A DNA stretch of 64,000 nt from Escherichia phage RB43. Positions 876-63,667 of the stretch are shown piece by piece. The position numbers and the translations under genes are program-made. The stretch is taken from the sequence record NC_007023.1; one strand, written 5' to 3'. The notes beneath the pieces are model-generated. The model was not told where the DNA came from, did no database searches, and saw only the letters and a list, made by a program, of their open reading frames with translations. Every line of letters starts with the position of its first letter. Within the stretch, counting starts at the first letter, position 1.

Positions 876-1176
876 TTATTTCGATTCTTTTGGCAATTGT
901 TCGATAATCGATTGAGTTTGTTTAAGTTCTTCACTCAAATTATTTCGATATGTAGCAAGTTCGCGGATTCTCGCGTTCGCATATGTGATGACCCTTTCCT
1001 CAGTCACCGCATAATGATAACCACCATTAGAAGTAAGTTCCAAACGGTAATTATCCCCCGTTAGGTACTTTGATATGCTGGTACTGTAAAAATACCTTTA
1101 CTGCTTCCAGAAGATTATAGTCTTCTTTACCGATAATAAACTGGTTCGGTTCCATTTCTTCAATATCAGGATTCAT
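876..1176 (-). pseudogene. hypothetical ~100-aa protein gene needing a 1-nt frame change at a C5/G5 run (1055-1059)
   Basis: ATG at 1176 (ATGA overlap with upstream stop) gives 41 codons then TAA; downstream frame stays open to 876 with no ATG; joining restores one ORF. Confidence 0.4.
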
Positions 1177-1709
1177 TTTGTAGCCTTATACATTTCAATT
1201 ACGCGTTTCATGTGCTCTTGTGATTGAGGCACACCAGCGAAGTTCAGTTTAATAAAGAATTCAAGACGATCTTTTTTATTGCATTCATCCAGCCCCAGGG
1301 CAGGTAATGACAGGTTTTCAAAGGCGCGTTGTTCGTGTCGCTGCATATCGTCCCAGAACAGACGGGAACCATCCGGCATAGGAATCCCTATCTCACCTTC
1401 ATAAACCTTGATGATCGTCGTCAATCGTTGTTTGCCGTCGATTACTTCGACCCAGTGAGATTCGTTAAACTCGCTATCAACAGCGATCGCGATAATACCG
1501 CAAGGGAACCCAGTGATCAAAGTTGTCAAGAATTCATCTTGTTCTTTCTGCGTCCACACATAAGGGCGCTGATAGGATGGATTCAGATCCAGATCCTTAT
1601 TTTTCCACCAGTGAATATAACTTCCAACAATGATCGCATGTTCACGGCTTCTGAAAGTTATCTGTTCGCGAATCCGGTTTCTTGCCGGAATATCATCTTT
1701 ATTAGACAT
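1173..1709 (-). CDS. DUF262 / ParB-like NTPase-domain protein (GmrSD N-terminal domain family), standalone
   Basis: Motifs SYQRPYVW...LITGFPCGIIAI...VIDGKQRLTT match the DUF262 signature; no nuclease domain follows. Confidence 0.6.
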   Translation of the reverse strand: MSNKDDIPARNRIREQITFRSREHAIIVGSYIHWWKNKDLDLNPSYQRPYVWTQKEQDEFLTTLITGFPCGIIAIAVDSEFNESHWVEVIDGKQRLTTIIKVYEGEIGIPMPDGSRLFWDDMQRHEQRAFENLSLPALGLDECNKKDRLEFFIKLNFAGVPQSQEHMKRVIEMYKATK

Positions 1710-2040
1710 GTTTGACTACCCACATCAATAAACCAGCATTGATAATAGCAAAAGTAGTACAAATCGCAGCATAAACACGCGCATTATGAACGTAGGTTTT
1801 CAGTTCTGCGATCTCTTGATCCTTTTCACTTTCGAACTCTTCACGGGTTCCGTAGTAACCAGGATCAGCAGGAGTAGCAACGCGCACAGCATCTTTTTCG
1901 AATAATGTCGATTTACCATGATCAGGCCCAACAACACCCAAAATGTCACCACGGTCGGTGTTAACGATTCCGTGTGTTCCGGCTTTGGCAAATTTACAAT
2001 CTTTGATTGTGACTACACGATCGCCAGCTTTGTAATTCAT
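1702..2040 (-). CDS. hypothetical protein with C-terminal hydrophobic helix (112 aa)
   Basis: ORF; C-terminus AAICTTFAIINAGLLMWVV is hydrophobic. Confidence 0.45.
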   Translation of the reverse strand: MNYKAGDRVVTIKDCKFAKAGTHGIVNTDRGDILGVVGPDHGKSTLFEKDAVRVATPADPGYYGTREEFESEKDQEIAELKTYVHNARVYAAICTTFAIINAGLLMWVVKHV

Positions 2041-2054
2041 AATATATCCTCAAA

Positions 2055-2068
2055 GGGGCCGAAGCCCC
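2055..2068 (-). other. intergenic GC hairpin (GGGGC-CGAA-GCCCC)
   Basis: Perfect 5-bp stem between two minus-strand ORFs; weak U-tract, so attenuator or processing site rather than strong terminator. Confidence 0.3.
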
Positions 2069-2325
2069 TATTTCGCTTTCTGTTGGAGGTACTCTAACAG
2101 TTTACCTTCTTCCTGCAAAGCAGAAACTTTATTCAGCTTTGCAATGTTCTGGAAATCAGATTGATCGGAATACTCCCAAACACCATCATCAGCAATAATT
2201 GCACCTGCTGATTCTCCGGTATGTGGATTGCGAGTCAATGCCAGCCCCAGGGGATGCAGGATCTCTTTATTGATTTTCCAGAGCAACCCCATTTCAGACA
2301 GAGTATTGAAATCGACGGTTTTCAT
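2068..2325 (-). CDS. hypothetical protein (85 aa)
   Basis: ORF in co-oriented block, overlapping stop/start with neighbours. Confidence 0.45.
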   Translation of the reverse strand: MKTVDFNTLSEMGLLWKINKEILHPLGLALTRNPHTGESAGAIIADDGVWEYSDQSDFQNIAKLNKVSALQEEGKLLEYLQQKAK

Positions 2326-2708
2326 TTTGCAATAATGCCGAAAGCAAGCAAACCACCGCGATGATCGTTATCCGCACTCTCCTGGAAGAAAAAGTATTCA
2401 TCACCGGAAATACTGGTAACACGAACACCTTCTTTCAGATACGGTAACAGATACAGAGGGATCAGCATGATTTCTAAATCATCGCTCCATTTACGGAACC
2501 CCAGATTTTTCATTTCTTCCATCGTCAGGTCATTAGGATCGACGGGTTCAAAATCAGGTGATGCCTGGAGTCGTCCAGGAAGTGAACGTATATGGTTGAG
2601 AGCAAATTCTTCTCCCCATGACTGATACGCGATAGGTTCAGCGGCACGGGTTGCAGTAGCCAACAGAATCATTTGGCAGATTTGGAAAGTCGTTGCTTTT
2701 GTTTTCAT
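2322..2708 (-). CDS. hypothetical protein with hydrophobic N-terminus (128 aa)
   Basis: N-terminus MKTKATTFQICQMILLATATRAA resembles a signal peptide. Confidence 0.45.
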   Translation of the reverse strand: MKTKATTFQICQMILLATATRAAEPIAYQSWGEEFALNHIRSLPGRLQASPDFEPVDPNDLTMEEMKNLGFRKWSDDLEIMLIPLYLLPYLKEGVRVTSISGDEYFFFQESADNDHRGGLLAFGIIAK

Positions 2709-3118
2709 GATGTATATCCCACAAGTTTAGTAAGGAGGTGTCCCATAGTCTTACGCGCATGATCGCGGATTTCGCTATAAGGAACATATTTGAAACCGTC
2801 CATTTCTGTAATGGTTCGACCGTTCTTCACGAACGTTGACGCACAGAAACATTTATCGGCTTCGGGGTAATTATCGCCTTTGTAGATGAACAATGCAAGT
2901 TTTTTCTTACTTGTATAATCCAAAACACCCAGGCTGATCAGTTGGTCAGGACGCACTTCGAAACCAGTTTCTTCGAAGCATTCGCGAATAGCAGCATCAT
3001 ATGGGCTTTCACCCTTTTCTACATGCCCCTTTGGAATATCCCAGTGGGGCGTTTCGGTAGCGTGACCCATTAGAATACTGCCGTTATTCAGAAAGAGAAT
3101 ACCAGCAGATAATTCCAT
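2705..3118 (-). CDS. nudE: NUDIX hydrolase
   Basis: Nudix box GHVEKGESPYDAAIRECFEETG (Gx5Ex7REUxEExGU). Confidence 0.8.
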   Translation of the reverse strand: MELSAGILFLNNGSILMGHATETPHWDIPKGHVEKGESPYDAAIRECFEETGFEVRPDQLISLGVLDYTSKKKLALFIYKGDNYPEADKCFCASTFVKNGRTITEMDGFKYVPYSEIRDHARKTMGHLLTKLVGYTS

Positions 3119-3354
3119 TATGCGTTTCCTGAACTAAATTTCTCGTCGTATGCGGAAAGCGCATTATCTGCACGTTTTTTCGCTTCTGTATGTCCACGGC
3201 TATCATTGATACCGCGACGATACATTTCGATCCAGAAAGAACGTCGAGTATCTTCGTTCATTTCGGTCAGTTTAATATCGCGAAATACGTTTTGTTCTTT
3301 GATCAGTCGTGCCAGTTCAGCATCTTGTTCAGTTCTTGATAGTACAGTGTTCAT
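3118..3354 (-). CDS. hypothetical protein (78 aa)
   Basis: ORF in co-oriented block. Confidence 0.4.
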   Translation of the reverse strand: MNTVLSRTEQDAELARLIKEQNVFRDIKLTEMNEDTRRSFWIEMYRRGINDSRGHTEAKKRADNALSAYDEKFSSGNA

Positions 3355-3375
3355 AGTTCACCTATTTCTTTCAGT

Positions 3376-3603
3376 TCAGTTTTCAGTTTTTCGAGGAGTG
3401 GATTGGTATTGGATTTGTGAATCACTCAACCGCGCATAGAACAGAGTACGGGTTTCGTTGATTTCAGACAATACCTCTTGATCGAGTTTTTCGATACCCG
3501 CACCGAATGCCATTTGAAACAGAGTTTCAGCAGTTTGCGCGAATCCGTGTTGAAACATTCGATCGAATTTTGGTTCGTATTGTATTAAACGGACACTAGC
3601 CAT
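3376..3603 (-). CDS. hypothetical protein (about 75 aa)
   Basis: Internal ATG chosen to avoid long overlap with 3596-3889 ORF. Confidence 0.35.
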   Translation of the reverse strand: MASVRLIQYEPKFDRMFQHGFAQTAETLFQMAFGAGIEKLDQEVLSEINETRTLFYARLSDSQIQYQSTPRKTEN

Positions 3604-3889
3604 AATATTCTTCGTAATCCTCACAATCTGGGAGGTATGTTTCGCAGAACATACAGAGTGTGAAAAATGCGGTTTGGCGAATGCCTGGGTTATCCGGTAG
3701 ATACATCCAGAATGTGTTTGCAAACACAATGAACGTTTTCAGATTTTCAACGGTTACTTCGCTGATACCATCATAACCAGATTGCGCGATCGCTCGCTCC
3801 AGAGGAACAGGATATTGCTGGCAGTAGTCAGCGTAATGTTCACTCGTTACAAGGTCATTAGCGACCTTCACTAAATTGGTGATTTTCAT
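3596..3889 (-). CDS. hypothetical protein (97 aa)
   Basis: ORF in co-oriented block. Confidence 0.4.
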   Translation of the reverse strand: MKITNLVKVANDLVTSEHYADYCQQYPVPLERAIAQSGYDGISEVTVENLKTFIVFANTFWMYLPDNPGIRQTAFFTLCMFCETYLPDCEDYEEYYG

Positions 3890-4469: not shown

Positions 4470-4479
4470 AATATATTTC

Positions 4480-6422: not shown

Positions 6423-7085
6423 TTAAAAGTTAATTACACTAAGCACGTTAGCTTTCAATTCACTAAGCGTACCATTATTTAGGATGATAATATCAGTTGG
6501 TTGAGGGTTCAAACCTTTCTCAGTTGAATGGCTGTCATCCTCTCCGGTTTTCTCGTTCGATGAATACGAACTTAGGCCCCGAACTTGCTCAGGTATTTTA
6601 TATTCATGTTTTTGTCGAACATCCGTAATGATAAAGTTATCTTTATCGGAACGCAACATTTTCTTCAATACAATATCGACCCATACAATATCGTTATGAT
6701 TACACACGATATCAGTACCGAAAACCTGCATCAGTCGGCGTATTGTCCAGGGCTGTGTATTGGTTCTACAGATTTCATATACTGCTGTATCAACAGCACC
6801 AAGCCAATAGCCCCGCTTCTCTAACCGCTTAACCCCGAAGTCGAAGACTTTTAGTGCATCTTCGTTAGACATCAACAGGGGCGCTTCTCGATCGCCTGTA
6901 TAGAATGGGTTGGTTTTAGTCAGTTCACGCAAGTAACGGTTTCCCGATTCCTTCATCCCGTCCGACAGAATACTTTTGATCTCGTCAGCGAGCGCGAACG
7001 CTTCGACGTTTTGATAGTCATCTAAAACGAACTGGGTAGCGGTGTCTTTACCCGTTCGTTTTTTACCACAAATGCAATAAATCAT
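6423..7085 (-). CDS. 1: deoxynucleoside monophosphate kinase
   Basis: P-loop GKKRTGKDT; RRLMQVFGTD, ITDVRQKHE, NNGTLSEL match T4 gp1. Confidence 0.85.
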   Translation of the reverse strand: MIYCICGKKRTGKDTATQFVLDDYQNVEAFALADEIKSILSDGMKESGNRYLRELTKTNPFYTGDREAPLLMSNEDALKVFDFGVKRLEKRGYWLGAVDTAVYEICRTNTQPWTIRRLMQVFGTDIVCNHNDIVWVDIVLKKMLRSDKDNFIITDVRQKHEYKIPEQVRGLSSYSSNEKTGEDDSHSTEKGLNPQPTDIIILNNGTLSELKANVLSVINF

Positions 7086-7661: not shown

Positions 7662-7829
7662 GAGCGAAGCGAACACACGAACGAAGTGAGTGTTTGGTAA
7701 CTCAACTACAGAACTACATAATTATATTTTAATATTTTATATATAGAGAAAAATGTAGTTTTTGGTATACTTTTTGTACAGATGTTAACTATCCGTCTTC
7801 GCTTCGCTTGACGGAACTCGCTTCGCTCG
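7662..7829. repeat. dyad-symmetric intergenic element, copy A
   Basis: Arms GAGCGAAGCGAA...CGAACGAAGTGAGTG / CTCGCTTCGCTCG around a 57-bp core (7712-7768) identical to 42423-42479; core is itself palindromic (AACTACAT...ATGTAGTT). Confidence 0.75.
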
Positions 7830-7903
7830 TAACCTTGAAAAAGTTATTGATCAATTCAATAAATAGGTATATCATACCCATACTTTCAAAAGAGATTGAA
7901 AAC

Positions 7904-12258: not shown

Positions 12259-14331
12259 ATGATCATGGATTATGAATCAATAATTGATGGTATTATGCAA
12301 GATTTTCAGCATCCGTGTGATGCTGAAATACCTGCTGGATCGTACAGGCGTATTATCTGGCAGGGACACACAGAAGATTACCCCGCTGTTGGGGTAGAAT
12401 GGGATACAGAAATCATTCCGATCGGGACGCATCTTTACACGCAATCCCCGTTTGGACAGAAAAGCGATCCGCTTCCGGTTGTCAACTCCCCAGGTACAGA
12501 TCCGGGTACTGGGGAAGCAACAGGGATTCTCGTTGCTAAAATTGGTTATTATTTCGCTACTCAACAAGAAATTGATGACTATATCACCTCTATCGGGGCT
12601 ACTAAGCTCGCAGGTAATGATTGGTATGGTGCGGATCTGACAAAAGCGAACCTGTTCAAAAACCCAGGCGAACTTGCAATGTACAAGGTCGAGAACTCAG
12701 GCGGTTATCTACTGACTTCTGGCCCACAATGCGATCAGCGTATCAGACAGGCGTATAATAGCGACACAGGCGCGTTTACAAGCGTTGATTACTATTGGAA
12801 TGGTAATCGTATTGCCTACATGAAACATGACGACACAGGGGCGCACAATTGCAAATACGTGGGTATGGTGGTTAACACCAACGCAGACACAAGCATTCCC
12901 CCTGTACCTCCGGCTATGCCGTCAATTTACGGGGCATTGCCTAGCGAAATTTCAATGATGCGCTCCGGTTTGGGTTGTCTTCCTGCAACGGTAGGTTTTG
13001 CGTACACGAATATCAGTGATGCAATGCTATCCGCATGGAACGAAACGCGCAAGTCGTTTAAGCTCGTGTTTGATATGCTTACGGGTATCACTAAAACGGG
13101 TTCCGGTGGTATCTCCACGATGTACGATGGTTTGTCTATCGCAATGGAGGAAATCACAGCGGGTGCTCTTGCGTTGTCACAGCAAGCATGGCAAGCCGCA
13201 ATTAAGGTGTTCAAAGATATTATGTCTTCTGCGTTAAACATCGTAGGTGGTGCGTGGAACATGATAATGAGTTTTTTACCAACTGTTACGATTCTGGGTG
13301 TTTCAATAAACATCTATGATCTGATTTTCGGTGATAACTCAGTGCAGACACTGAAAGATTCATTCCAGGCGATCATTGATGCTGGTACAGAAACCTATGA
13401 GAACGTCATAAACGCAATATACAGCGCTATAGGCAGTGCATACAATTATACCGTTGAATATGTCAAGGCTGGCGCTCGCGACCTCGTGGATGCTTGCAGT
13501 ACGCTTTTTGACTGGTGTATTACCATGTTTCAAAATGGTTGTGTTGCTCTGGTGGATCTGTATGGGCGAATAATGCAAATCTGGGCTATGCCTCCAACGG
13601 TTCCAAACCCTTTATGGGCTGCTGTTCTGGCTATCCGTAACATTATGATGCAGATCAAGCCGCTTGATGTGATCCTGGGTGGAAACTTCCCTGGGTTTAC
13701 GGCAATGGATTTGTACCAAATGGCACAGGAGAAGGTGAAAGAGTTTATCGATCAGTCGTATGCGCAAATACGCGTGTATTATGAACAGGTGAAGGATCTG
13801 ACTAGCACGTTGACTACACAGACACAAGAAAGGGATGCGATTAAACGCAAGTTCGATCAATACCTTAACTGGATGTGGGGCGCTGTTACAGATGCTGCTA
13901 CCGCTGCATATCAGGCTGCATTAGATGCTGCAAACGAGGCAATCGAGCAAACCAAAGCGCTTATCGCTGGCGTTAAAGCACAGATAGCCGCTCTACAGGA
14001 CGCGATGAAAGATACGTACAGCCTTGCGATGGAAGAACTTAAAAAACTTCCTTTGATGCAGCAGATTAATGAATTCTTAGGCTTCTGTGGGATTGCTTTT
14101 GATGATCTGCTGAAAACCTATGATAACGCGGTTACTGGGGCGAAATCATTATATAAAAACTTTGTTGACAGTTCCCGATCGTTTAAGGATACATGCAAAG
14201 TCATATATAACCAGATATGCACACTTGCTCTAAGTAAGGTGACTCAATACGTGAATAAACTGTTGTCTTTAATCGGACTCGCGATCACTTTTGCGTCAAT
14301 TAATATCTGCGTCCCTATGATTCAACTATAA
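12259..14331 (+). CDS. hypothetical 690-aa protein at the gp5-gp6 junction (helical, coiled-coil, hydrophobic segments)
   Basis: Long ORF tightly coupled to gp5 stop; no PAAR-like or other recognised motif. Confidence 0.6.
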   Translation: MIMDYESIIDGIMQDFQHPCDAEIPAGSYRRIIWQGHTEDYPAVGVEWDTEIIPIGTHLYTQSPFGQKSDPLPVVNSPGTDPGTGEATGILVAKIGYYFATQQEIDDYITSIGATKLAGNDWYGADLTKANLFKNPGELAMYKVENSGGYLLTSGPQCDQRIRQAYNSDTGAFTSVDYYWNGNRIAYMKHDDTGAHNCKYVGMVVNTNADTSIPPVPPAMPSIYGALPSEISMMRSGLGCLPATVGFAYTNISDAMLSAWNETRKSFKLVFDMLTGITKTGSGGISTMYDGLSIAMEEITAGALALSQQAWQAAIKVFKDIMSSALNIVGGAWNMIMSFLPTVTILGVSINIYDLIFGDNSVQTLKDSFQAIIDAGTETYENVINAIYSAIGSAYNYTVEYVKAGARDLVDACSTLFDWCITMFQNGCVALVDLYGRIMQIWAMPPTVPNPLWAAVLAIRNIMMQIKPLDVILGGNFPGFTAMDLYQMAQEKVKEFIDQSYAQIRVYYEQVKDLTSTLTTQTQERDAIKRKFDQYLNWMWGAVTDAATAAYQAALDAANEAIEQTKALIAGVKAQIAALQDAMKDTYSLAMEELKKLPLMQQINEFLGFCGIAFDDLLKTYDNAVTGAKSLYKNFVDSSRSFKDTCKVIYNQICTLALSKVTQYVNKLLSLIGLAITFASINICVPMIQL

Positions 14332-14354: not shown

Positions 14355-16269
14355 ATGGCTACCGTAAAGAAACAAATTAATCAGATCCCCGATATTTTTG
14401 TCGGGGCTACTTTTGATGAAATCAAATCGGAGTTTGATTAACTGGCTCCGAGGTCAGGACGAATTCAAAGATTATGATTTCTCTGGCTCGCGTATGAACG
14501 TGCTTGTTGACCTGCTGTCTTACGCGACATTGTATATTCAACAGATGGGTAACAGTGCTCTATTCGAATCATTTATTCGAACTGCGGCGCTTCGTAGTTC
14601 TGTTGTGCAACATGCTCAGGATTTTGGTTATATGCCGGATTCCCGTACTGCTGCAAACACTTCGATTCTGATTACAGCAAATAACCCACTGAACCCAACT
14701 TCAATTCGTATTCCTCGTGGTACGAAATTCATTGGTACAGTAAAAGATACGAACAGCTTCCCGTTTGTTGTGTCTGATGACGTTGTAATCGTTCGTGATA
14801 AAGATAACAACTATGTGTCGATGCTGAATATCGTACAGGGGCGTTTGGTTCGTACCGAAGTAATCTATGATGGTTCTACTATCCTGATCCGAGATCCGAA
14901 CATTGACCGTAGTCAGGTTCGAGTGACGATCAACGGCGCACAGTGGGACGATTGGACAAACGAAAGTATCGTTAACGCAACGGGCGCAAGTACCGTTTTC
15001 TATATGCGTGAAACGGTAGACGGACATACAGAGGTTTATTTCGGTGAAGGTGAGACAAGTCAACAGGTCGCGGGTGGTGCTCTTACCGCTGACTATATCG
15101 GGGGCTTGAAACCTGCAAACGGTTCTGTCGTTGTTATTGAATACATTTCAACCAACGGCGAAGAAGCAAACGGTGCTGAAAACTTTGTTTACGTGGATAC
15201 GTTGACAAACATCAGCATTACAAGTATTGTTGAGAACCCGACCAACTCTGCTGATTATGTCGGTGCTGATGGTGGTGGTGAACCGGAAGACATTGAACGA
15301 ATTCGAGAATTAGCCCCGATCATGCGTGAAACGCAGCGTCGTTGTGTTACTGCATCGGATTACGAATCATTCCTGTCGCATCGTTTCGGCTCTGTGATTC
15401 AGGCGGTTCAGTGCTTTACCGATAGTGAAAAACCTGGATATGCGTTCATCGCGGTTAAACCGAAATCAGGGTTGCGCCTAACCTCAGTACAGAAAGAGGA
15501 TATGCAAAACTATCTGGCTAAGTATAACCTTGCGACAATTACGCCGTCGATTCTCGACCCTAACTATCTGTATATCGTACAAAGCATTAAAGTCACGTAT
15601 GATATCAGTAAGTTAATCGAGTCAGAAGAATGGCTACGTGGTCAGGTTATCAATGAAATTGACAAGTATTACACTGATAACGTTGAAATTTTCAACAGAT
15701 CATTCAGTAAATCGAAGATGTTGACTTATGTCGATAACGCTGATGTGTCAATCATTGGTTCCTCTGCGACGATTAGCCTGTTGCGTGAACTGGATAACTA
15801 TTACAGTGCGCCGATGTCTGGTATTCACTTCTTAAACCAGGTTGCGTCAAGATCTGTTATTTCTAACGGGTTCAAATATACCAACGCAGATGATGATTCA
15901 TATGATGTGCGCTATGCGTCAACTGATATGGATACATCGACCGGACGTGCTAAGATTGTAATTGGCCCGTTTAAAGATGGTGATATTGCGATAACTCCGT
16001 ATGCTGGTAACGATTTTGATAAATACCCAGGGGTGACAGACAGAACGAAATACTATGAGGTTGGCTATATCGAACATTATAGCGATTTCATCAGCTTCGA
16101 TCTGGGTGTGCTTAACGTCCCAGCAGAACGCTTTAGCGCTGCATATATCGAACTGACTGCAAAACCATTGGAAGAAACCATTTTTACTCGTGATGGTTCT
16201 CTGATTGTATTTGAAAATGACCTTCGTCCTCAGTATACCACGCTGACGATGAATCCAATCAGTCAATAA
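14355..16269 (+). CDS. 6: baseplate wedge protein gp6 (needs +1 frame change near codon 26)
   Basis: ATG 14355 with AGAGGGG SD encodes MATVKKQINQIPDIFVGATFDEIK (matches T4 gp6 N-terminus) then TAA at 14439; rest of gp6 is in +1 frame from about 14434. Confidence 0.85.
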
Positions 16270-29189: not shown

Positions 29190-29261
29190 ATACAAATAGG
29201 GGAAACCCTATATATGTTGGGGTGTATGGTGAAAACCTGCACCCGATTCAAAGAGGATCTT

Positions 29262-29876
29262 ATGATATACACAAAACTTAAAGAATGGTTGCCTCATGAT
29301 CTATACGTTGAGTATGTTGATATCATAACGGCTTCACCAAAAACAGAATACACAGAAAAACATCATATATTACCACGATCGCTATTTCCTGAATTTGAAA
29401 ACGACCCAGACAACTTAGTAGAACTTGATGTGATGAAGCATTTGATGGCTCATAGGACATTAGCAAAAACCAATGACCATAAAATGATTCTCGCGTTTTT
29501 CATGATGTTCACCTACGAACATAAACGTTATTCTACATTGTCAGAACAGGAACAACAATTTATTCTTGAAGAAAAGACAAAAGCCCGTGAAGCAATGCGT
29601 GTTGTTAAAAAAGAACAGATGAAAGGTAAATATGATGGTGAAAACAACCCATTTTACGGAAAACGACATACTGATGAATTTAAGAAAATGATGGGTTCTG
29701 TGCATAAAGGTAAGAAGTTATCACCAGAACATTTAGCAAATCTCGTTGCCGCACACAAAGGCAAAAAACGAGAAAAAGTAAAATGCCCCCATTGTGGGAT
29801 AATGTGCGCCGCTAATACAGCAAAGCGCTGGCACTTCGATAACTGTAAGTCTGGACTTGTCCAGCAGGGGGATTAG
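29262..29876 (+). CDS. free-standing HNH homing endonuclease (NUMOD3-type repeats)
   Basis: EKHHILPRS HNH core; NPFYGKRHTDEFKKMM and HKGKKLSPEH repeats; C-terminal CPHC; inserted between gp14 and gp15; ATG 29262 with AAGAGGA SD. Confidence 0.7.
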   Translation: MIYTKLKEWLPHDLYVEYVDIITASPKTEYTEKHHILPRSLFPEFENDPDNLVELDVMKHLMAHRTLAKTNDHKMILAFFMMFTYEHKRYSTLSEQEQQFILEEKTKAREAMRVVKKEQMKGKYDGENNPFYGKRHTDEFKKMMGSVHKGKKLSPEHLANLVAAHKGKKREKVKCPHCGIMCAANTAKRWHFDNCKSGLVQQGD

Positions 29877-41037: not shown

Positions 41038-42360
41038 ATGAGTGATAAACACTACACAATTCACAAGTTGATGCGTCAGTCTACGCTTCCGTCTGGTAAA
41101 CGCGAAAAGGTTATCAACGAAGCAACAGGCACGACAGATATCAACGTACAGAACACGCGCCCAGAACTGGTTTCTTTAACTCGCGCCGTGAACAACCTGA
41201 TCTATCATGAACTGGTTGCAGTACAAGAAACTGATTTACCAGTAGCAACGCTTTTTGGTGTTCGTTATCGTAACCCTAACGGCGATATGACTTTCTCCAG
41301 CGCTGCAACCTATTCAGGCCGAATTTCAGGGCGTACAGGCATCGATGATATCGATCTGGCTAAAGCATACGTTAAGGGTGATTTATTCAAGCACGATGTC
41401 ACTGACGTTGTTTATGAGGTTATCGCACCGATTACGCTAAACACCCTGGATACTGACAAAGACACCGCACTGATGAAAGGTGTTTTCCAAAGTAAAATTC
41501 GTCTGGTGAGTGAAGCCGCTGATACATCGAAATACGAAACAAGCGAAGATATCGCATCAACTTCGTTCCAGATGGATCGCTGGAATATTCCGGTACGCTC
41601 TCGTAAGTTTAAAACCGAAATGACGGTTGAACTTATACAGGATCTGGAAGCAAACCAGTTTGAAGCAGATGGGGTTATCGAGGATATTCTGGGTACTGTT
41701 GCCAGTGAAGAAGTTAACAAAGATATCATCCAGACTCTGATCACCGTATCTAAGCGTTATAACGTTAACGGTGTTGTGACTGACGGTATTTTTGATGCTA
41801 CCACGTCTTACACTGCTGCTGATGCTCCGGCATTAGGCCGTATGCTGTATCAATTAGCGTGTGAAATGGGGCAGGAAATGAATAAAACCACTTCATTTGA
41901 TGCTACCTACGTCCTTTGCTCTGCTCGCGTCACAGGCATTCTGGCTGCGTCTGGTTGGATGACCGAAACTGACGAACAACACCCGCTGGCAACTGGTAAG
42001 CTACAGAACGGTTATTATGTCTATACAGACACGAACACCCCGTTTGATTATCTGCTGACAGGCTGTAAGTACGATCTGGGTGATATGGACCATGTTGGTT
42101 CTCTGTTCTTCACTCCGTACACCGAAGCCGACGAAGCAGGTTCAATCAAGGTATCCGTAGATCCGGCATCACTGCAACCGAAAGTAGCAATTCTGATGCG
42201 TTACGGTTTGTCTGTGAACCCGTATACAACTGAAACCGATTCTGATCGCCTGATCAAAGGTGACGATTGGTCTAACCTCGCAGGTAAATCTAAATTGAGT
42301 CAGATCGTAGGTGTTAAATTACCTACCTGGGTTAATCATGTTTTGAGAAGACCATTATAG
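41038..42360 (+). CDS. 24: head vertex protein gp24
   Basis: 440 aa; gp23-like fold motifs (VELIQDLEANQFEA, SLQPKVAILMRYGLSVNPYT). Confidence 0.9.
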   Translation: MSDKHYTIHKLMRQSTLPSGKREKVINEATGTTDINVQNTRPELVSLTRAVNNLIYHELVAVQETDLPVATLFGVRYRNPNGDMTFSSAATYSGRISGRTGIDDIDLAKAYVKGDLFKHDVTDVVYEVIAPITLNTLDTDKDTALMKGVFQSKIRLVSEAADTSKYETSEDIASTSFQMDRWNIPVRSRKFKTEMTVELIQDLEANQFEADGVIEDILGTVASEEVNKDIIQTLITVSKRYNVNGVVTDGIFDATTSYTAADAPALGRMLYQLACEMGQEMNKTTSFDATYVLCSARVTGILAASGWMTETDEQHPLATGKLQNGYYVYTDTNTPFDYLLTGCKYDLGDMDHVGSLFFTPYTEADEAGSIKVSVDPASLQPKVAILMRYGLSVNPYTTETDSDRLIKGDDWSNLAGKSKLSQIVGVKLPTWVNHVLRRPL

Positions 42361-42384: not shown

Positions 42385-42543
42385 GAGCGAAGCGAATTTT
42401 CACGAACGAAGTGAGTGATAGGAACTACATAATTATATTTTAATATTTTATATATAGAGAAAAATGTAGTTTTTGGTATGGTTTTTAACCAGATGTAAAC
42501 TAACATTCACTCACTACGTTCGTTCATGTACTCGCTTCGCTCG
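42385..42543. repeat. dyad-symmetric intergenic element, copy B
   Basis: Same arms and identical 57-bp core (42423-42479) as copy A; arms form an imperfect ~34-bp inverted repeat. Confidence 0.75.
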
Positions 42544-42548
42544 TAAAT

Positions 42549-45375: not shown

Positions 45376-46296
45376 ATGAAAATTGATTACGAATTGGTAG
45401 AAGGGTTCCGTGCTCTGCCTACTAAAGAACAGAAAGGCGCACTGGCTGACTACGCTCAAAGCACCTTTGAAGTAAAATTGAACAAACAAAAATCATTCGA
45501 TAACATGCTGGCTGATCTGGAAGCTGCTGTACCAGCGGAAGAAGAAAAACCGGAACTGCTGATTGATTCCCCAGAATCCGCGATCGTTTCGTACACTGGT
45601 AGCGTTGCAATGGATGAACCTGTTGTTAACGCTCCGAACATTCCTGATGTTGTTGTCGATGTGTCGCAGGACTTTATGGATTACGTCAAAGACGTTGCGC
45701 CGGAAGTGGCTGATCAGATTAAATTAGTCCCTGATGTTGTTGTCGATGTGTCGCAGGACTTTATGGATTACGTCAAAGACGTTGCGCCGGAAGTGGCTGA
45801 TCAGATTAAATTAGTCCCTGATGTTGTTGTCGATGTGTCGCAGGACTTTATGGATTACGTCAAAGACGTTGCGCCGGAAGTGGCTGATCAGATTAAATTA
45901 GTCCCTGATGTTGTTGTCGATGTGTCGCAGGACTTTATGGATTACGTCAAAGACGTTGCGCCGGAAGTGGCTGATCAGATTAAATTAGTCCCTGATGTTG
46001 TAGAAGCGTCTGTAACCGCTTCTGACGAGTCCAAAGCTGATATGGCATGGTTGGACGGGTTTAGCCCTACAATCGTTCTGATGGGGCGTAGCGCTCGTTC
46101 TAACGGCTATTATACGTGTCCCTGGTGGATCTACGATTGGATTAAGAAAAATCCAGATTGGTACAAAGATCCTGACCAGTGTCCACACTACAGCGCACGG
46201 GATACCCTGAAATCGCTGGTGTACTACATCAAACGTGATGGTCAAGTTACTGTGCGTGAAACGCGCAACAGCAGTTTCGATACCTTCAAATTTTAG
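45376..46296 (+). CDS. hypothetical protein with 4 identical 29-aa repeats and C-terminal PWWIYD domain
   Basis: 306-aa ORF; repeat PDVVVDVSQDFMDYVKDVAPEVADQIKLV x4; C-terminal YYTCPWWIYDWIKKNPDWY. Confidence 0.6.
   Translation: MKIDYELVEGFRALPTKEQKGALADYAQSTFEVKLNKQKSFDNMLADLEAAVPAEEEKPELLIDSPESAIVSYTGSVAMDEPVVNAPNIPDVVVDVSQDFMDYVKDVAPEVADQIKLVPDVVVDVSQDFMDYVKDVAPEVADQIKLVPDVVVDVSQDFMDYVKDVAPEVADQIKLVPDVVVDVSQDFMDYVKDVAPEVADQIKLVPDVVEASVTASDESKADMAWLDGFSPTIVLMGRSARSNGYYTCPWWIYDWIKKNPDWYKDPDQCPHYSARDTLKSLVYYIKRDGQVTVRETRNSSFDTFKF
45643..45990 (+). repeat. perfect tandem repeat, 4 x 87 bp (plus 11-bp partial fifth unit)
   Basis: Units at 45643, 45730, 45817, 45904 identical by eye; in-frame inside CDS. 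Confidence 0.9.
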
Positions 46297-46745: not shown

Positions 46746-46787
46746 AGGTGAATAATGAATAAATAAAATCATGAATGTCTGAAAGAT

Positions 46788-47324
46788 TTGTCAGATGGTA
46801 AAGAAATCGAGAACGTTATATTCCTCGATATTGACGGCGTGTTAAATAATATGCGCTCTATGAAATTCGGTGAACATATGGACATCGAATGTGCGCGACA
46901 TCTACGCCGGATCGTCAACCATGCAAATTGTGATATCGTTGTTTCTTCAACGTGGCGCATTGGGAACACGACACACACCCTACGCGAAATCCTGTACCCC
47001 TGGGGCTTGTATCGCGTTATCGGTCGAACCTGTAGCAACATGGTTGGTAATTGTGTGCGTGGTGATGAAATAAAGGCGTGGATCGATACGTTCGGATGTA
47101 AGAACTACATGATCCTTGATGATGATTGTGATATGTTGCCAGAACAAAAAGATCACTTCGTCAGAACAGATCCTGAAATCGGGCTTACCGAAGAACAATC
47201 AACCTTTGCGATCCGCAATATATTTGGAGTAACAACCCCGTTTTGTCCTGAATGCAACGGCTATGGGCGCGTGAACCAATACGATAAATGCGGTAGCTGT
47301 AACGGTAAAAAATTGCGTCTATAA
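46788..47324 (+). CDS. HAD-superfamily phosphatase-like protein with C-terminal zinc ribbon
   Basis: FLDIDGVLNN (motif I), ILDDD, CPECNGYG...CGSCNG; start ambiguous (TTG 46788, or ATG 46775 if A3 run 46782-46784 is read as A2). Confidence 0.5.
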   Translation: MSDGKEIENVIFLDIDGVLNNMRSMKFGEHMDIECARHLRRIVNHANCDIVVSSTWRIGNTTHTLREILYPWGLYRVIGRTCSNMVGNCVRGDEIKAWIDTFGCKNYMILDDDCDMLPEQKDHFVRTDPEIGLTEEQSTFAIRNIFGVTTPFCPECNGYGRVNQYDKCGSCNGKKLRL

Positions 47325-47345: not shown

Positions 47346-47855
47346 TCAATAATGGCTACTGAAAAATGGACTACGGTTCACCCTATCCCGTGGCGTAACA
47401 CCAGCTTTACCTATCTTCCGTGGTGGATCTATGATATCATCGTTGCTGCTAATACGGCAGGTGGAGATTGGCGTGATTACGCAGAAGAAAAATATGCGAA
47501 AGAATTCGTCACGCTGAAACAAGCATACATCGACTAGACCGATGTTGATTTCATCGAATCTCGCAACGGCTACCTGTACAAACTCAGTGATTTTACTCCG
47601 GCTGATCCGGTTGTTACTATCACCCCGAAAACTGCCCCTGCTGATTTTAAAGTAGGCGATCCTGACCTTGCTGCAACCGATCTGTTTACTATCGATCCGA
47701 GCGGTACGGCTATGACTCTGACTGTGGATTCCTCTGGTCATGCGTCGATCGTTGGCGGTAAACTCCATGCTATAAGCGCTGGTGATGTTGTTGTAACGGC
47801 GACCTCCGGTTCTGTTACTGCAAACCTGACTGTAAATGTTAAAGTTGCTCCATAA
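47346..47855 (+). CDS. late gene: PWWIYD N-domain plus Big_2-type Ig-like domain, interrupted by in-frame TAG (47535-47537)
   Basis: 61-codon ORF ends at TAG; same frame continues 106 codons with ...TVDSSGHASIVGGKLHAISAGDVVVTATSGSVTANLTVNV and no start codon of its own. Confidence 0.5.
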
Positions 47856-50819: not shown

Positions 50820-51138
50820 ATGAATACCATTCACTGCCGCAAAGAGTTCGTTGAGTTCTATCACGGATCATGTACTGCTGCCGGAATCGAAAGGCATGTT
50901 GTTACCTCCTTGTGCGTCTGAAACTCTGTCAGAGAAAGGCAGAAAGAAAAACTTAGACCGTGTTTTCTTCACCGCTGATATAGGTTTAGCCCGTATCTAT
51001 GCTGGAAGGGCTGCACGGTCAATCGGTGGTGATCCGGTACTGTATCGGGTTGTGTGTCCAGTTGACGCGGTATGTATGAACGACGACAAAGGCGCGAGTG
51101 TTTATCATGCTGCATGGGCTTTTTGTGAGGAAATATAA
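50820..51138 (+). pseudogene. small Arr-like (F-Y-H-G motif) ADP-ribosyltransferase-fold candidate; needs +1 frame change
   Basis: ATG 50820 with strong SD AAGGAGATAACC gives MNTIHCRKEFVEFYHGS... then TGA after 33 codons; +1 frame continues ...RVFFTADIGLARIYAG...LYRVVCPVD to 51138; A3 run at 50890-50892. Confidence 0.4.
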
Positions 51139-53684: not shown

Positions 53685-54257
53685 AACTGTTCTCGAAAAC
53701 GCAAAAACGGCTACCCTGATCGGTAGCCGTGAACCCCCCGAACGTATAGCAAACATCGCTATCAAGATCGGACGGCATTAAGTGATCGAGACATTTTAGC
53801 TTATTCTGGTGGTGCTCCTGGAATGGATAGCCATTTCTTGTTTGACTACGCACCAGAAAGACGGCGCATAATTCTCCCTGAAAACGGTTTTAACGGGCTT
53901 TACTCGAATGGTATGGATATCATCGACTATAACGAGTTAGACACGTACAAAGCCGCTGACGAAGCGAGAAAGGTAGCTGGGAACTTCGATTACCAAAATG
54001 AATGGACACAAAGGCGTTATGCGAGAAATGCAGTTCAGATATTGCGCGAAAATTTAGACAGCCCGACTGACTTCGTGTTATTTTGGGCTATCGAAAAGGA
54101 TTTTTGTGTCAAGGGCGGTACGGCTATCGCAACACGCCTTGCACGATTATACGGTGTTCCCAGTTTCAACCTGTGGAAAGAAAACGTATTGAATGATGTT
54201 TGTGATACTTTGGGGATTAATATCAAACCTCCAACTTTGGATTTTCTCTGGTGCTAA
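53674..54257 (+). pseudogene. DprA/SLOG-like (Rossmann) protein candidate; needs 1-nt frame change near C6 run 53734-53739
   Basis: ATG 53674 gives MNFKTVLENAKTATLIGSREPP... then TAA; adjacent frame continues ...DILAYSGGAPGMDSHFL... to 54257. Confidence 0.4.
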
Positions 54258-54323: not shown

Positions 54324-54527
54324 ATGGTAGAGATCAACGGAATCGGGGTGAACCCGAACGCATTAATTTCAAAGAACGATCCTCGTTGCGGTCGTAGTCC
54401 TACGCTGGCAGAACGTGCGCGTAAGCTGGTAGAGGAAACAAACGGCAAGATGTTTGAAACATGCCGTGAAGAAATCACCCGCAACATTCTAAGTTTTCCA
54501 ACAAAACAATCATACACGTTGATATGA
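54324..54527 (+). CDS. hypothetical protein (about 67 aa)
   Basis: Internal ATG with AAGG SD preferred over ORF-track start. Confidence 0.35.
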   Translation: MVEINGIGVNPNALISKNDPRCGRSPTLAERARKLVEETNGKMFETCREEITRNILSFPTKQSYTLI

Positions 54528-54745
54528 AACGTTTTGTTGGTACGACGATGGGGCAAGAATGCACCAAACGTGCGTTTGATATGATCGGGGAATGGCTGAC
54601 CGAAGAAGGTTTAACCTATGAAACCCAAGCGGTAAGAACGTCTGCCGCAATACAATATGCAATGAGTAACCGCCGTATTTCAGGAAACGCCCCTGTAACT
54701 GAAAGAACTGGGTATAGCGAATACACGTATTTCATCACCTGGTAA
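54524..54745 (+). CDS. hypothetical protein (73 aa)
   Basis: ORF with overlapping start/stop. Confidence 0.4.
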   Translation: MKRFVGTTMGQECTKRAFDMIGEWLTEEGLTYETQAVRTSAAIQYAMSNRRISGNAPVTERTGYSEYTYFITW

Positions 54746-54832: not shown

Positions 54833-55090
54833 ATGGAAATCAAATTAATCCCTACTTGCGCTGGTTACTGCTTGGCACTGAACGGTGTAGCAAACAACGG
54901 CAAAGGCTTACGGGCTAACGTTGAAGCAATGCTGAATGAACTGGCGTTGCGGAGTGAACCTGGGATGCAGTATGAGTATGATGACGTTGCAACCAGCGTT
55001 AAAATCTCTAATCTGGTGATGAATGGTGTTGACTGTGCGGGTGGTGGGATTGCTACATCGACTATGCAGACAATCGGGTTTTCTTACTGA
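54833..55090 (+). CDS. hypothetical protein (85 aa)
   Basis: ORF with GAAGGAAAA SD. Confidence 0.4.
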   Translation: MEIKLIPTCAGYCLALNGVANNGKGLRANVEAMLNELALRSEPGMQYEYDDVATSVKISNLVMNGVDCAGGGIATSTMQTIGFSY

Positions 55091-55109
55091 CCAGCAACTA
55101 AGGAATGTT

Positions 55110-55542: not shown

Positions 55543-56973
55543 ATGCAAACTTTTAATGAACTGAATAGCATCATCACCTCAACCGATTCCTACAAAGTGT
55601 CTCACTGGATGCAGTATCCGCAAGGCACTGATGCAGCGATGTTCTATATCGAATCTCGCGGTGGTAAATTTGATGAAGTAGTAACCGCTGGCGTTAACTA
55701 CGTTGCGCGGGTTCTCGCTGAACCAATTACCATGAAGCAGGTTGAGTTAGCGCGGGTACTTTACCGTAAACACTTCGGAAAAGAGATCTTTAACTACGAA
55801 GGGTGGAAAAAGATTGCTGAACTGGGTTACACCCCTGTAATTTTCCGTGCGATCCCAGAAGGTACGGTGTTCCGGGAAAAATGCCGTGCGACTGTGTACG
55901 CCGAAAACGAATTCTCGTGGCTGGCTGGGTGGCTGGAGACAATGACGATTCGCGGTATTTGGTATCCGTCATCTGTAGCAACGCTATCGCGTGAGTGTAA
56001 AAAGGTTCTGGCACACTACCTGGATATGACTTCTGACCTTACTGGCGAAGCATATAACATCACACTGGGTACACGTCTGCATGATTTTGGGGCGCGGGGC
56101 GCGACCTCTGCTGAATCTGCTGGCATTGGTGGGCTGGCACACCTTTATAACTTCATCGGCACTGATACCGTAGAAGGGATGATTATGGCAATCAGCCTCT
56201 TTGCGGATTATCAAACACTGTTTGATGAAGTTGAAAACGTAGAAGTAGCTGGGGTTTCCATCCCTGCTCGTGAGCATTCAACTACGATTTCCTACGGTAA
56301 AGAAAACGAAGACGAAGCATATAAAAACAGCATTGAAATGTTCGGTGATGGGTTCTACGCTTGCGTATACGATTCATGGGACTACAAAGCCGCTGTTGAC
56401 CGGATCGATAGTTATAAAGAGAAAATCATTGCATCTGGCGGTGTGTTGGTAGTGCGTCCAGACTCAGGGGATATGATAGACAACATCATGTACACCTTGC
56501 GCAAACTGGGGCAAATCTTCGGATATACTGTCAACTCCAAAGGGTACAAAGTTCTTCATAACTCTGTTCGTATCATCCAGGGTGACGAGATCCACGGGCC
56601 TGAAACAATCAACCGTGTATTAAGCTGGATGGAAGCGAACAAATGGTCGAGCGAAAACATTGCGTTCGGTATGGGTGGCGGTTTGCTGCAAGAAGTTACC
56701 CGCGATACCCAGAAATATGCTGAAAAACTTTGCGCTATCCGTATCAACGGTGTGTGGAAAGGCGTTTACAAATGCCCGAAAGGTTCGGAATGGAAAAAGA
56801 GCAAGAAAGGTTTATTGATGACCATCACTAACGGGATGGAATTCAAGACAATCGATTCTCTCGAAGAATCTATTCCTGCTGGGTGGTTTGATGCGATGGT
56901 AACTTATTATGACAATGGTTATCTGAACAAAACTGACACTTTAGGGGAAATTCGTGAGCGTAGCCGGATTTAA
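55543..56973 (+). CDS. nadV: nicotinamide phosphoribosyltransferase (NAMPT)
   Basis: TDSYKVSHW, GTRLHDFGARGATS, VVRPDSGD, IQGDEI, FGMGGGLLQ are NAMPT signatures. Confidence 0.85.
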   Translation: MQTFNELNSIITSTDSYKVSHWMQYPQGTDAAMFYIESRGGKFDEVVTAGVNYVARVLAEPITMKQVELARVLYRKHFGKEIFNYEGWKKIAELGYTPVIFRAIPEGTVFREKCRATVYAENEFSWLAGWLETMTIRGIWYPSSVATLSRECKKVLAHYLDMTSDLTGEAYNITLGTRLHDFGARGATSAESAGIGGLAHLYNFIGTDTVEGMIMAISLFADYQTLFDEVENVEVAGVSIPAREHSTTISYGKENEDEAYKNSIEMFGDGFYACVYDSWDYKAAVDRIDSYKEKIIASGGVLVVRPDSGDMIDNIMYTLRKLGQIFGYTVNSKGYKVLHNSVRIIQGDEIHGPETINRVLSWMEANKWSSENIAFGMGGGLLQEVTRDTQKYAEKLCAIRINGVWKGVYKCPKGSEWKKSKKGLLMTITNGMEFKTIDSLEESIPAGWFDAMVTYYDNGYLNKTDTLGEIRERSRI

Positions 56974-61532: not shown

Positions 61533-61539
61533 TCAAAAA

Positions 61540-61568
61540 GCCCCTTGCGAAAGTGAGGGGCTTTTGTT
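61540..61568 (+). terminator. rho-independent terminator
   Basis: GCCCCT...AGGGGC hairpin plus TTTTGTT after nrdD. Confidence 0.6.
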
Positions 61569-61603
61569 ATATTACACATACCGAAACGATGGAGGATGAA
61601 AAG

Positions 61604-61837
61604 ATGAAACTGACAAGAAAAATGACTGATGTTGTTGGGTGTGCATTCGCTTTGGGTTATGAAGTGAAAAATCATCCTACTCGTATTGAGATCATCAACC
61701 CTATCAAGGGTCGCGCGGGGTTGGTTCTGTGTGAAGATGGTACAGCATATCGTAATGATGTTCAGTTGGATCTGGCTATCGCTCTGCGTACCGCAAAACA
61801 AATGAAAGACGTGCTTATAGCAGGTGCTAAAAAATAA
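61604..61837 (+). CDS. hypothetical protein (about 78 aa)
   Basis: ATG 61604 with GGAGGA SD preferred over ORF-track start. Confidence 0.4.
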   Translation: MKLTRKMTDVVGCAFALGYEVKNHPTRIEIINPIKGRAGLVLCEDGTAYRNDVQLDLAIALRTAKQMKDVLIAGAKK

Positions 61838-61847
61838 GGGTTATATT

Positions 61848-62325
61848 ATGTACTGGACAAAAGACAAATTCGTGTTTCGTGATGATGAAAGTTTTGGCAC
61901 GGTATACCGAAATTTAGCTTTGCGTGGTAGTGCTTTATCACCAAATCAACTATCGTCTGTTGTAATGCCGATAAAGGTTACTCACTGTGACCGTTTTGGT
62001 GTCAATGGTCTTGTTGATTCCGCTGGCACTTCCTGGTATTCGAACTGTTCTTATCTGTTAGACAACAACGATCGTGATCTCTTCAAGAAAGCTGTCCCAG
62101 TTGTTAAGAAGTCAAGAATCTGGATGTTCAAAACTTCTGGACTGTGCGCATCTTCTGGGACGAGTTTACGTTAATGGAAAACTGGTCACAAAACAGGGTG
62201 ATCTTGAAAAATATCTTCGTAAACAACGTGAAGTTGCGTTGAAAGAAACAGAAAAAACAGTCAATCGGTTGACCAAATCGTTAGCCGAAGAAACAAAAAA
62301 TCTGAAACTGTTACGGGGTGAATGA
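61848..62325 (+). CDS. hypothetical protein; two overlapping frames joinable at A4 run 62130-62133
   Basis: Frame 1 from ATG 61848 ends 62174; frame 2 (62074-62325, coiled-coil-like) overlaps. Confidence 0.3.
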
Positions 62326-62564
62326 TGTTTCCATTAAAAGCGCGTGTTCGCAACAAAACAGGAACACAGGAATGGATGGAATGTATACGGGAAACAAAAC
62401 ATTTCTACATTTCTCAGGCAGTGGACAACAACGGAAAGAACATCCGTTATAATAAAGTTGGTGGTAAACGTGTGGGTATGGATCAATATCTCCAGGTTGG
62501 TACTGTTCGGCCTGTCAACGTTCCATTTGATTTAAGAATTCCTAACGGTAAACCTGTGATATGA
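62322..62564 (+). CDS. hypothetical protein (80 aa)
   Basis: ORF with overlapping start/stop. Confidence 0.4.
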   Translation: MMFPLKARVRNKTGTQEWMECIRETKHFYISQAVDNNGKNIRYNKVGGKRVGMDQYLQVGTVRPVNVPFDLRIPNGKPVI

Positions 62565-63070
62565 TCGGGAAAATCCTTGATATCCTGTTTCCCTCCCGTG
62601 TACGTGAGCGGGAGAAACAACAACAATTCGACGACATGTTAGAAGAAGTTATGTTCAATTCTTTTATGATGTGGAAGAAAAAACGCGAAGACGAGAAGCA
62701 CCCAAACGCACAAATGGCAAAGGGTGTTTCTAAATGCGCGGTTGGTCGTTACTGGGTTGAAAAAGATTATATTGATCTGATAGGCGCTATAGCTCCTGGG
62801 GTAACGCTGGAAGACTTTTCCCGTGCAACGGGGCGTTCGTATACTGGCTGCATCAATCGTCTGCGTATGCTGTCTATAGTGGTGCGTAGCAAGAATTACG
62901 GATATCGTGATGTTATCCGTCCGGTGATTCCGGTAAGCCGATTAAAAATTCACACGGCTAACGGAAAAAGACTTGACCTGACGGATGAAATGTGTAGAAT
63001 AGGCTATATCAGAGAGGGGAAAGTGTTAAAAGCCCCTGAATGGCTCACTAAACAATTTGAAATAAGGTAA
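62561..63070 (+). CDS. hypothetical protein (169 aa)
   Basis: ORF. Confidence 0.5.
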   Translation: MIGKILDILFPSRVREREKQQQFDDMLEEVMFNSFMMWKKKREDEKHPNAQMAKGVSKCAVGRYWVEKDYIDLIGAIAPGVTLEDFSRATGRSYTGCINRLRMLSIVVRSKNYGYRDVIRPVIPVSRLKIHTANGKRLDLTDEMCRIGYIREGKVLKAPEWLTKQFEIR

Positions 63071-63074
63071 TCAC

Positions 63075-63667
63075 ATGATTAAGAAAATATTTTCGTTCCT
63101 CAACAACAAAGTAGAAACCGTCATCGAGCAAAACACCTCCCCAGAGGACGCATGGCGTAGCGCTGCACGTATCCTGATCAAGAGATTGACCGTCTGCAAC
63201 ATACCCGCATCACGGCTGCTCATGAGATCGCGAAACTAAGCAAAAAAGTTGTTGAGCACAAAGCTCTGCATGAAAGCAAAGAAGCAGAAATCAAAAAACT
63301 GCTGGCTGCTTCTCAGGAAGTTTCAAACAGTCATTACATTCTGGCACTGCAACACCGCAATATCTGGCAGGGGTTGAAAGAAAAGATCAATGAACTGGCA
63401 GAAATGAACAAACAGATCGATCTGTCTGTTGTTGAACTCGATAAAAAACTGGCTGATGTCAAAATGAACCTGGAAATTATCGAACTGAACAAACAGACTG
63501 AAAGCCTGGGTCTGACTGTGCCGGAAGATGTGATTGCAAGCGTGGGTCATACCTCCGTGAACGTCGATACTATCGTAACGAAGATTGATGTTCTGCTGGG
63601 TGGTAAGAACGCCGCCTCCGTGACTTCCGCTGATGTAAGTGCATACATCGAAGCCCTGAAAGCATAA
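63075..63667 (+). pseudogene. hypothetical coiled-coil protein; needs frame change between 63161 and 63237
   Basis: ATG 63075 frame stops at 63237; long downstream coiled-coil frame is open from 63161 with no ATG. Confidence 0.35.

Follow-up and report, generated by a model that had tools for sequence, protein, structure and literature searches.

The window analyzed here, a 64-kb (64,000-nucleotide) stretch of coliphage RB43 taken from RefSeq record NC_007023 and amounting to 35% of the genome, contains 17 genes whose reading frames are disturbed by single-nucleotide changes: 15 of them carry one-nucleotide insertions or deletions (indels) and two more carry nonsense substitutions. Comparison with RB43-GVA, our main comparator, and with more distant relatives indicates that these frame disruptions are almost certainly base-calling or assembly errors of the original RB43 record, and not lesions of the phage or pseudogenes; we put the probability of this explanation at about 0.93. 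The disruptions are not a biological feature and reveal no new biology, and their consequences are practical ones for annotation. A first-pass annotation made from the sequence alone had noted recurrent one-nucleotide frame disruptions in at least nine genes, had attributed them to sequencing artefact instead of pseudogenization and had advised that the gene models be distrusted. Its observation is borne out and proves to be an undercount, and its general conclusion is supported by the Illumina genomes of RB43-GVA and by the relatives.

The RB43 record and its comparators

According to Nolan et al. 2006, NC_007023 is 180,500 bp in length and was built from plasmid shotgun libraries with gap closure by polymerase chain reaction (PCR); the regions with novel open reading frames (ORFs) were poorly represented among the plasmid clones and had to be obtained by PCR gap closure alone. 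The record dates from 2005, and the sequencing chemistry is likely to have been that of Sanger. In megablast searches the window matches HE981739.1 and HE858210.2, the two genomes of RB43-GVA, along its entire length at 99.9% identity, and GuL6, RB16, Miller, CfP1, IME-CF2, Lw1 and others at 83-97%, which places it in the T4-like coliphage RB43 (Pseudotevenvirus). The passages of Perrody et al. 2012 (PMC3486835) that deal with these genomes give HE858210 as the RB43 wild type and HE981739 as an RB43 mutant, sequenced in separate Illumina runs. Across the 63,740 bp that match the window the two RB43-GVA genomes (hereafter GVA) are identical to each other.

Each difference between the window and GVA was aligned with GVA and, wherever alignable, with GuL6 (a Buttiauxella phage), RB16 and Miller (a Citrobacter phage) as outgroups for polarity; the differences, their polarity and spectrum, and their consequences for the genes are read directly from these alignments. 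The unusual protein lengths are also those of the public record, as exact-sequence look-ups showed that the odd-length proteins of the window match AAX78xxx/YP_239xxx entries of Escherichia phage RB43 exactly, including gp18 (664 aa), gp1 (220 aa), Inh (306 aa), nicotinamide phosphoribosyltransferase (NAPRT, 476 aa), gp24 (440 aa), gp6 (617 aa) and Hoc (61 aa).

Differences and their polarity

Compared base by base, the window and GVA differ by 23 one-nucleotide indels (12 deletions and 11 insertions in the window), 14 substitutions and one 261-bp tandem-repeat difference in inh. All 23 indels set the window alone against the rest, with GVA and every alignable outgroup sharing one length (23:0, sign test 2.4e-7). 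At 12 of the 14 substitutions GVA and the alignable outgroups likewise agree against the window. The disruptions thus behave as would an artefact that is unique to one record and is not reproduced elsewhere: both GVA genomes, which represent a sister laboratory lineage, contradict the window at each of the indels. The two checks that the first-pass annotation had proposed, an orthogonal sequencing platform and close relatives, both favor its reading, since the two Illumina genomes of RB43 disagree with the window at every disruption and GuL6, RB16 and Miller side with them at all 23 indels wherever they can be aligned. Searches of IMG/VR contigs with degenerate patterns that span the sites in gp18 and gp6 recovered no window variants, all matches being of the consensus length.

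At the remaining two substitutions GVA and not the window is the outlier. One, at 20377, results in R316Q in gp8. The other, at 29807 (TGC>TGA), shortens in GVA a homing-endonuclease-like ORF (29214..29876) between gp14 and gp15, giving 193 vs 220 aa. Both are plausibly genuine mutations of the Geneva lineage.

Spectrum and clustering of the window-specific changes

The window-specific differences depart from natural divergence, in the manner of an artefact, in their indel to substitution ratio, in their transition to transversion ratio and in the balance of synonymous and nonsynonymous changes. Indels and substitutions stand at 23:12, as against 78:1947 between GVA and GuL6, a roughly 50-fold excess of indels (Fisher p=3e-23), and transitions and transversions at 3:9, as against 1224:723 (p=0.013). 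Eleven of the 12 substitutions could be scored by codon, the one at 1057 being left out as it lies inside the frameshift at 1055; two are nonsense, eight missense and one synonymous. This is the outcome of random base changes, unlike the residue that purifying selection leaves.

The indels show a statistically real preference for runs of identical bases. The length of such a run is changed by 20 of the 23; deletions fall in runs of at least 2 nt in 10 of 12 cases (background 0.465, p=0.01), insertions copy the adjacent base in 10 of 11 (background 0.43, p=0.0015), and the per-run error rate climbs with length from 0.0002 for single bases to 0.011 for runs of at least 5. The first-pass statement that the disruptions lie mostly at short homopolymer runs therefore describes an association that is real but weak, the true runs being mostly of 1-3 nt. 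The true run is at most 3 nt long at 20 of the 23 sites and at least 5 nt long at only three, and none of the 685 four-base runs in the window is affected, so that the concentration in long runs typical of flow-based or nanopore platforms is not seen. Single bases or non-run sites account for eight of the indels, three indels (14432, 53775 and 55876) lie outside runs, and substitutions make up one third of the error population. The more specific proposal that the indels are homopolymer errors of the sequencing platform consequently does not hold: the plasmid-shotgun origin, the short runs, the three non-run indels and the 12 substitutions all speak against it.

The errors are, moreover, clustered. 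Eight successive pairs of indels lie no more than 100 nt apart (P<5e-5), the indels are unevenly spread over the window (chi-square p=0.0013), and insertions occupy other regions than deletions do (runs test p=0.005). The first 34 kb or so contain extra bases, four of which are an extra G after A; between 53.7 and 55.9 kb T is lost, mostly after G; and between 62.1 and 63.8 kb A is lost at the head of A-runs. Substitutions share the regions of the indel bursts, as exemplified by hoc, where those at 47509 and 47537 are 28 nt apart. Error density is highest in the accessory-gene regions at 0-8 kb and 40-64 kb, regions of the kind that Nolan et al. describe as scarce in their libraries and closed by PCR. 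Both the clustering and the regionally uniform error type point to locally poor or single-read coverage and not to a run-length-dependent chemistry. Taken together with the predominance of short runs, the non-run indels, the substitutions and the plasmid-shotgun origin of the record, we infer that locally poor Sanger reads are the source.

Most likely such errors were left unpolished in the plasmid-shotgun assembly closed by PCR, and the bursts fit segments for which only one or a few reads of low quality were available. Read quality would then be the underlying cause. Gene callers operating on this sequence produced the truncated, split or locally scrambled proteins that are now in RefSeq and UniProt.

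Consequences for individual genes

The window-specific changes and their effects on the encoded proteins are collected in the table. They fall into genes that are truncated or split, genes with an altered C-terminus, genes in which neighboring indels restore the frame, and genes with missense or silent substitutions.

Table. Genes with window-specific changes, in order along the window; residue and length comparisons are between the window or public model and GVA unless stated otherwise
Gene or ORF	Coordinates	Strand	Change in the window	Effect
Small ORF, 99 aa in GVA	876..1176	-	CCCCC at 1055-1059 vs CACC in GVA and GuL6 (one extra base plus A>C)	From the true start, stop at aa 42
NudE nudix hydrolase	2705..3118	-	-1 AA>A at 2999/3000; +1 TT>TTT at 3007; 7 nt apart	Three residues altered, AHI>SPY
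83-aa ORF	3351..3603	-	+1 G>GG at 3395	C-terminus altered from aa 70, stop at aa 76
gp1 dNMP kinase	6423..7085	-	Three +1 in 48 nt: 6548 T3>T4, 6575 G>GG, 6596 T3>T4	Net +3; 220 vs 219 aa; 15 alignment columns scrambled
gp2	8687	-	Substitution	A239V; all four comparators G
gp6 baseplate wedge	14355..16269	+	Extra G at 14432 (GGA-G-TTT, non-run)	Stop at codon 29; public model of 617 aa from internal out-of-frame ATG at 14416; relatives 637 aa
gp18 tail sheath	33056..35050	+	Three +1 in 66 nt: 33493 C3>C4, 33499 A6>A7, 33559 A>AA	Net +3, ORF open; 664 vs 663 aa; 20 alignment columns (147-169) scrambled
gp24 capsid vertex protein	41038..42360	+	-1 CCC>CC at 42325/42326, two codons before true stop	440 aa vs 432 aa in all relatives (8 aa too long)
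HAD-domain protein, 189 aa in GVA	46755..47324	+	T>A at 46765	Codon 4 TTA -> TAA, nonsense; public RB43ORF236w, 157 aa
hoc-like head decoration gene	47352..47855	+	47509 A>T; 47537 T>G	D53V; codon 62 TAT -> TAG; 61 aa in public record vs 166-167 aa in relatives
153-aa ORF	48780	-	C>G transversion	E30Q
105-aa ORF ('Arr-like')	50820..51138	+	+1 G>GG at 50893	Stop at aa 34
DprA-like protein, 194 aa	53674..54257	+	Single T lost at 53774/53775, non-run	Stop at aa 36; public RB43ORF250w is the 144-aa C-terminal part only
140-aa ORF	54324..54745	+	-1 TTT>TT at 54518/54519	Stop at aa 68; public RB43ORF252w, 73 aa
89-aa ORF	54833..55101	+	-1 TT>T at 55041/55042	C-terminus altered, 85 vs 89 aa (RB43ORF253w)
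NAPRT	55543..56973	+	Three T lost in 19 nt: 55869, 55876, 55887	Net -3; 476 vs 477 aa; VPVKNAV -> FREK-CR
Dam	57311	+	Substitution	P18H
NrdC	58134, 58175	+	Two substitutions	58134 synonymous; 58175 S20C
NrdD	59748, 59775, 61159	+	Three substitutions	Missense: D114H, D123N, K584T
159-aa ORF	61848..62325	+	Two A lost: 62106 AAA>AA, 62130 A5>A4	Net -2, stop at aa 109; public RB43ORF263w, 108 aa
197-aa ORF	63075..63667	+	-1 AAA>AA at 63179/63180	Stop at aa 55
306-aa ORF, start only, extends past window	63698..64000	+	-1 A5>A4 at 63803	Frame lost after aa 36

Frame-restoring sets are found in four genes (NudE, gp1, gp18 and NAPRT) and consist of two or three indels within 7-66 nt that scramble 3-20 conserved residues. 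In each of the scrambled segments GVA is identical or nearly so to GuL6, RB16 and Miller, and the reading of the window is unrelated to them. In gp18 the window has KRKKSLLVLNRSVLTQIFLLVG at columns 147-169, where the conserved SEKIVARAKQIGTYPDISTGW stands elsewhere; if the window is in error, the peptide expected from gp18 would be IVARAKQIGTYPDISTGWTTEIVSQSK. The public gp1 protein is a singleton in its 90% cluster. The proteins gp6, gp18 and gp1 are indispensable in T4, and RB43 is a viable phage. With essentiality taken from knowledge of T4, the window would have lost essential functions, as gp6 terminates at codon 29 and both gp18 and gp1 have a scrambled conserved core. On the same premise of T4 essentiality, the first indel in such a gene would be lethal, and hence triple sets of the same sign could not build up stepwise.

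The alignments also allow the individual sites of the first-pass annotation to be revisited. The homopolymers that it named are all present in the window where it had placed them, though they are not always the lesion, and three of the six sites that it listed besides gp6 and gp18 (53734-53739, 63204-63206 and 46782-46784) were misplaced or mistyped. It was right about 1055-1059, where the C5 run replaces a true CACC, about gp6, with its extra G at 14432 outside any run, about gp18, with its extra bases at 33493, 33499 and 33559 (net +3), and about 62130-62133 (A5>A4), where a second deletion at 62106 had gone unlisted. At 50890-50892 the gene had been identified correctly but not the A3 run, the lesion being the adjacent G>GG at 50893. 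The C6 run at 53734-53739 is identical in GVA, and the T actually lost, at 53775, is 36 nt past its end; similarly, the lesion sought at the CCC of 63204-63206 is AAA>AA at 63180. No frameshift is needed at 46782-46784 in the HAD gene, as T>A at 46765 converts its codon 4 into TAA. Not recorded there were the indels at 3000/3007, 3395, 6548/6575/6596, 42326, 54519, 55042, 55869/55876/55887, 62106 and 63803, along with the hoc nonsense change TAT>TAG at 47537. As for the gene labels, that of the HAD protein is upheld by Pfam (HAD_SAK_2, E=1e-28) and the DprA label has a sub-threshold Pfam match only, whereas no Pfam support was found for the label 'Arr-like' of the 105-aa ORF at 50820..51138.

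With respect to the DprA-like gene, the 194-aa ORF is present in GVA, in GuL6 and as an open ORF in Miller. The annotated protein is of 144 aa in both Miller (L008 22708-23292) and IME-CF2 (AKR16073.1), with the same Met start as RB43ORF250w; in Miller the frame is actually open over 194 aa, with a conserved N-terminus. The faulty RB43 model thus seems to have been passed to relatives by homology-based annotation.

Alternative explanations

Several points weigh against ascribing every difference to error. RB43-GVA is not the identical stock resequenced: it is a laboratory lineage that was kept separate for some 20 years and is known to carry at least one real mutation, the host-range mutation in gp38 (Trojet et al. 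2011, PMC3157838), so that a few of the window-specific changes could represent true differences between the stocks. Run-associated one-nucleotide indels also arise from natural polymerase slippage, and hoc, the HAD gene and the small accessory ORFs are probably dispensable, so that individual lesions in them could be real. Furthermore, the SPY reading in NudE resembles the SPI of RB16 at the protein level, via other codons and without indels; we considered whether it might be a real allele and treat the resemblance as coincidence, given the different codons and the lack of indels in RB16. One alternative is a mixture, in which most of the differences are errors and a minority, such as the hoc amber, the HAD ochre, some of the small-ORF frameshifts and missense changes in dispensable genes, are genuine mutations of the stock. 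We regard this as possible but unlikely. Hoc is dispensable in T4, the stocks have been kept apart for long and differ in host range, and the two derived substitutions of GVA within the window suggest that real changes occur at about that rate; yet no subset of the window-specific changes stands out from the rest, 9 of the 12 substitutions being transversions, only one of the 11 scored by codon being synonymous, and all sharing the regions of the indel bursts. That the sequenced stock in fact possessed the hoc amber, the HAD-gene ochre and/or an Inh with a 29-aa repeat amplified to four copies seems improbable to us. Were it true, the reference strain would be a laboratory-evolved variant without full-length Hoc and with an expanded internal head protein.

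Far harder to sustain is the proposal that all or most of the changes are real, which calls for a viable RB43 stock with about 15 frameshifted and two nonsense genes, either as pseudogenes or as compensated frameshifts. The bases do stand in the deposited record, and in-frame compensated sets (+++ or ---) are said to have been found by Crick and colleagues in 1961 to restore function in T4 rIIB. Against this are the 23:0 polarity with respect to a sister stock and three relatives, the truncation of gp6 at codon 29 and the scrambled cores of gp18 and gp1, which would have to be reached stepwise via lethal intermediates, and the roughly 50-fold higher indel to substitution ratio than in real divergence. 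We judge it very improbable; genuine pseudogenization in particular was rejected on account of the intact single-frame orthologs and the one-sided polarity, and neither RB43-GVA genome has the lesions. Programmed ribosomal frameshifting or transcriptional slippage might be entertained as some of the sites are in A-runs (A4-A7), which support slippage in other systems. However, each ortholog in GVA, GuL6, RB16 and Miller is encoded by one unbroken ORF with no conserved slippery site, which refutes programmed frameshifting; the lesions at 14432, 53775 and 55876 are outside runs, and two others are nonsense substitutions, leaving this mechanism a negligible likelihood. Equally negligible is the chance that the window is right and the Illumina assemblies of RB43-GVA are wrong. 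Short-read assemblies may collapse repeats, but this may bear only on the 87-bp repeat of inh; four independently sequenced phages from different laboratories and platforms match GVA at every alignable site, and the GVA versions encode full-length, conserved proteins. For the point differences such a reversal is refuted.

Implications for annotation

NC_007023 is the reference record of the species bearing RB43's name and was the first published Pseudotevenvirus genome. Seventeen gene models in the 64-kb window are wrong, and the faulty proteins reside in RefSeq and UniProt. The published number of 'novel ORFs' in RB43 is also too high as a result of split ORFs. For protein structure prediction, phylogeny and core-gene alignment of RB43 proteins, HE858210 is the preferable source.

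The inh repeat and other observations

An 87-bp (29-aa) unit is repeated in tandem in the gene inh (45376..46296), with 4.1 perfect copies at 45643-46001, and the 261-bp difference from GVA corresponds to three extra copies of this unit. Both RB43-GVA genomes and GuL6 have one copy (Inh of 219 aa), with the junction of the duplication marked by a flanking 11-nt direct repeat, CCTGATGTTGT; Inh is 306 aa long in the window, 218 aa in RB16 and 217 aa in Miller. The array might have arisen in the sequenced stock by a real microhomology-mediated amplification, or it might be an artefact of assembly.

An element of about 125 bp is present in two intergenic copies, at 7711-7832 and 42422-42546, with about 84% identity and a core formed by a 60-nt identical AT-rich block ending in ...GTAGTTTTTGGTATACT. 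One copy is upstream of the ORF at 7808 and the other is downstream of gp24, and the element looks like a shared promoter or regulatory cassette. The prohead protease gp21 is annotated in GuL6 (L004 5607-6331) as two coding sequences of 273 nt and 393 nt, and is a single 648-nt gene in each of RB43, RB16 and Miller; the split in GuL6 may result from a comparable frame error, or the gene may really be disrupted. Between gp5 and gp6, at 12259..14331, there is a conserved 690-aa ORF of unknown function that is found in all Pseudotevenvirus relatives. The 695-aa members of its cluster, the same 90% cluster as that of gp6, are named either 'baseplate hub structural protein' or 'hypothetical protein'.

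Relationship to earlier reports and known systems

The discrepancy between the RB43 sequences has been known since 2012. In the passages that Perrody et al. 2012 (PMC3486835) devote to it, RB43-GVA and NC_007023 are said to differ by at least 107 nt genome-wide, 106 of which are common to both phages, and the 37 point differences in the window, which covers 35% of the genome, fit this count. It is the same set of differences, which is counted in those passages, not polarized, classified or attributed to error. Polarity, classification and gene-level consequences are what the present analysis adds; our literature searches found no paper that explicitly classes the RB43 discrepancies as errors.

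Among known sources of such patterns, the homopolymer errors of 454, Ion Torrent and nanopore sequencing resemble those of RB43 in that 20 of its 23 indels alter the length of a run and the rate grows with run length. RB43 differs from them in its plasmid-shotgun origin of about 2005, in runs of at most 3 nt at 20 of the 23 sites, in the 12 substitutions and in the non-run indels, and a 454-type artefact was rejected on both the platform, given the plasmid shotgun and the 2005 record, and the run-length distribution. The compensated sets of T4 rIIB offer a formal parallel, as in gp1, gp18 and NAPRT the frame is regained through three one-nucleotide indels of the same sign that lie within 19-66 nt; the RB43 sets are set apart by the scrambling of invariant residues in essential or conserved proteins and by their absence from the sister stock. 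The closest counterpart is provided by the unpolished shotgun phage genomes of the Sanger era, which share with RB43 the record-specific local bursts of one-nucleotide indels and miscalls that later resequencing corrects, as well as the split, truncated and locally frameshifted gene models that result, and from which RB43 shows no material difference.

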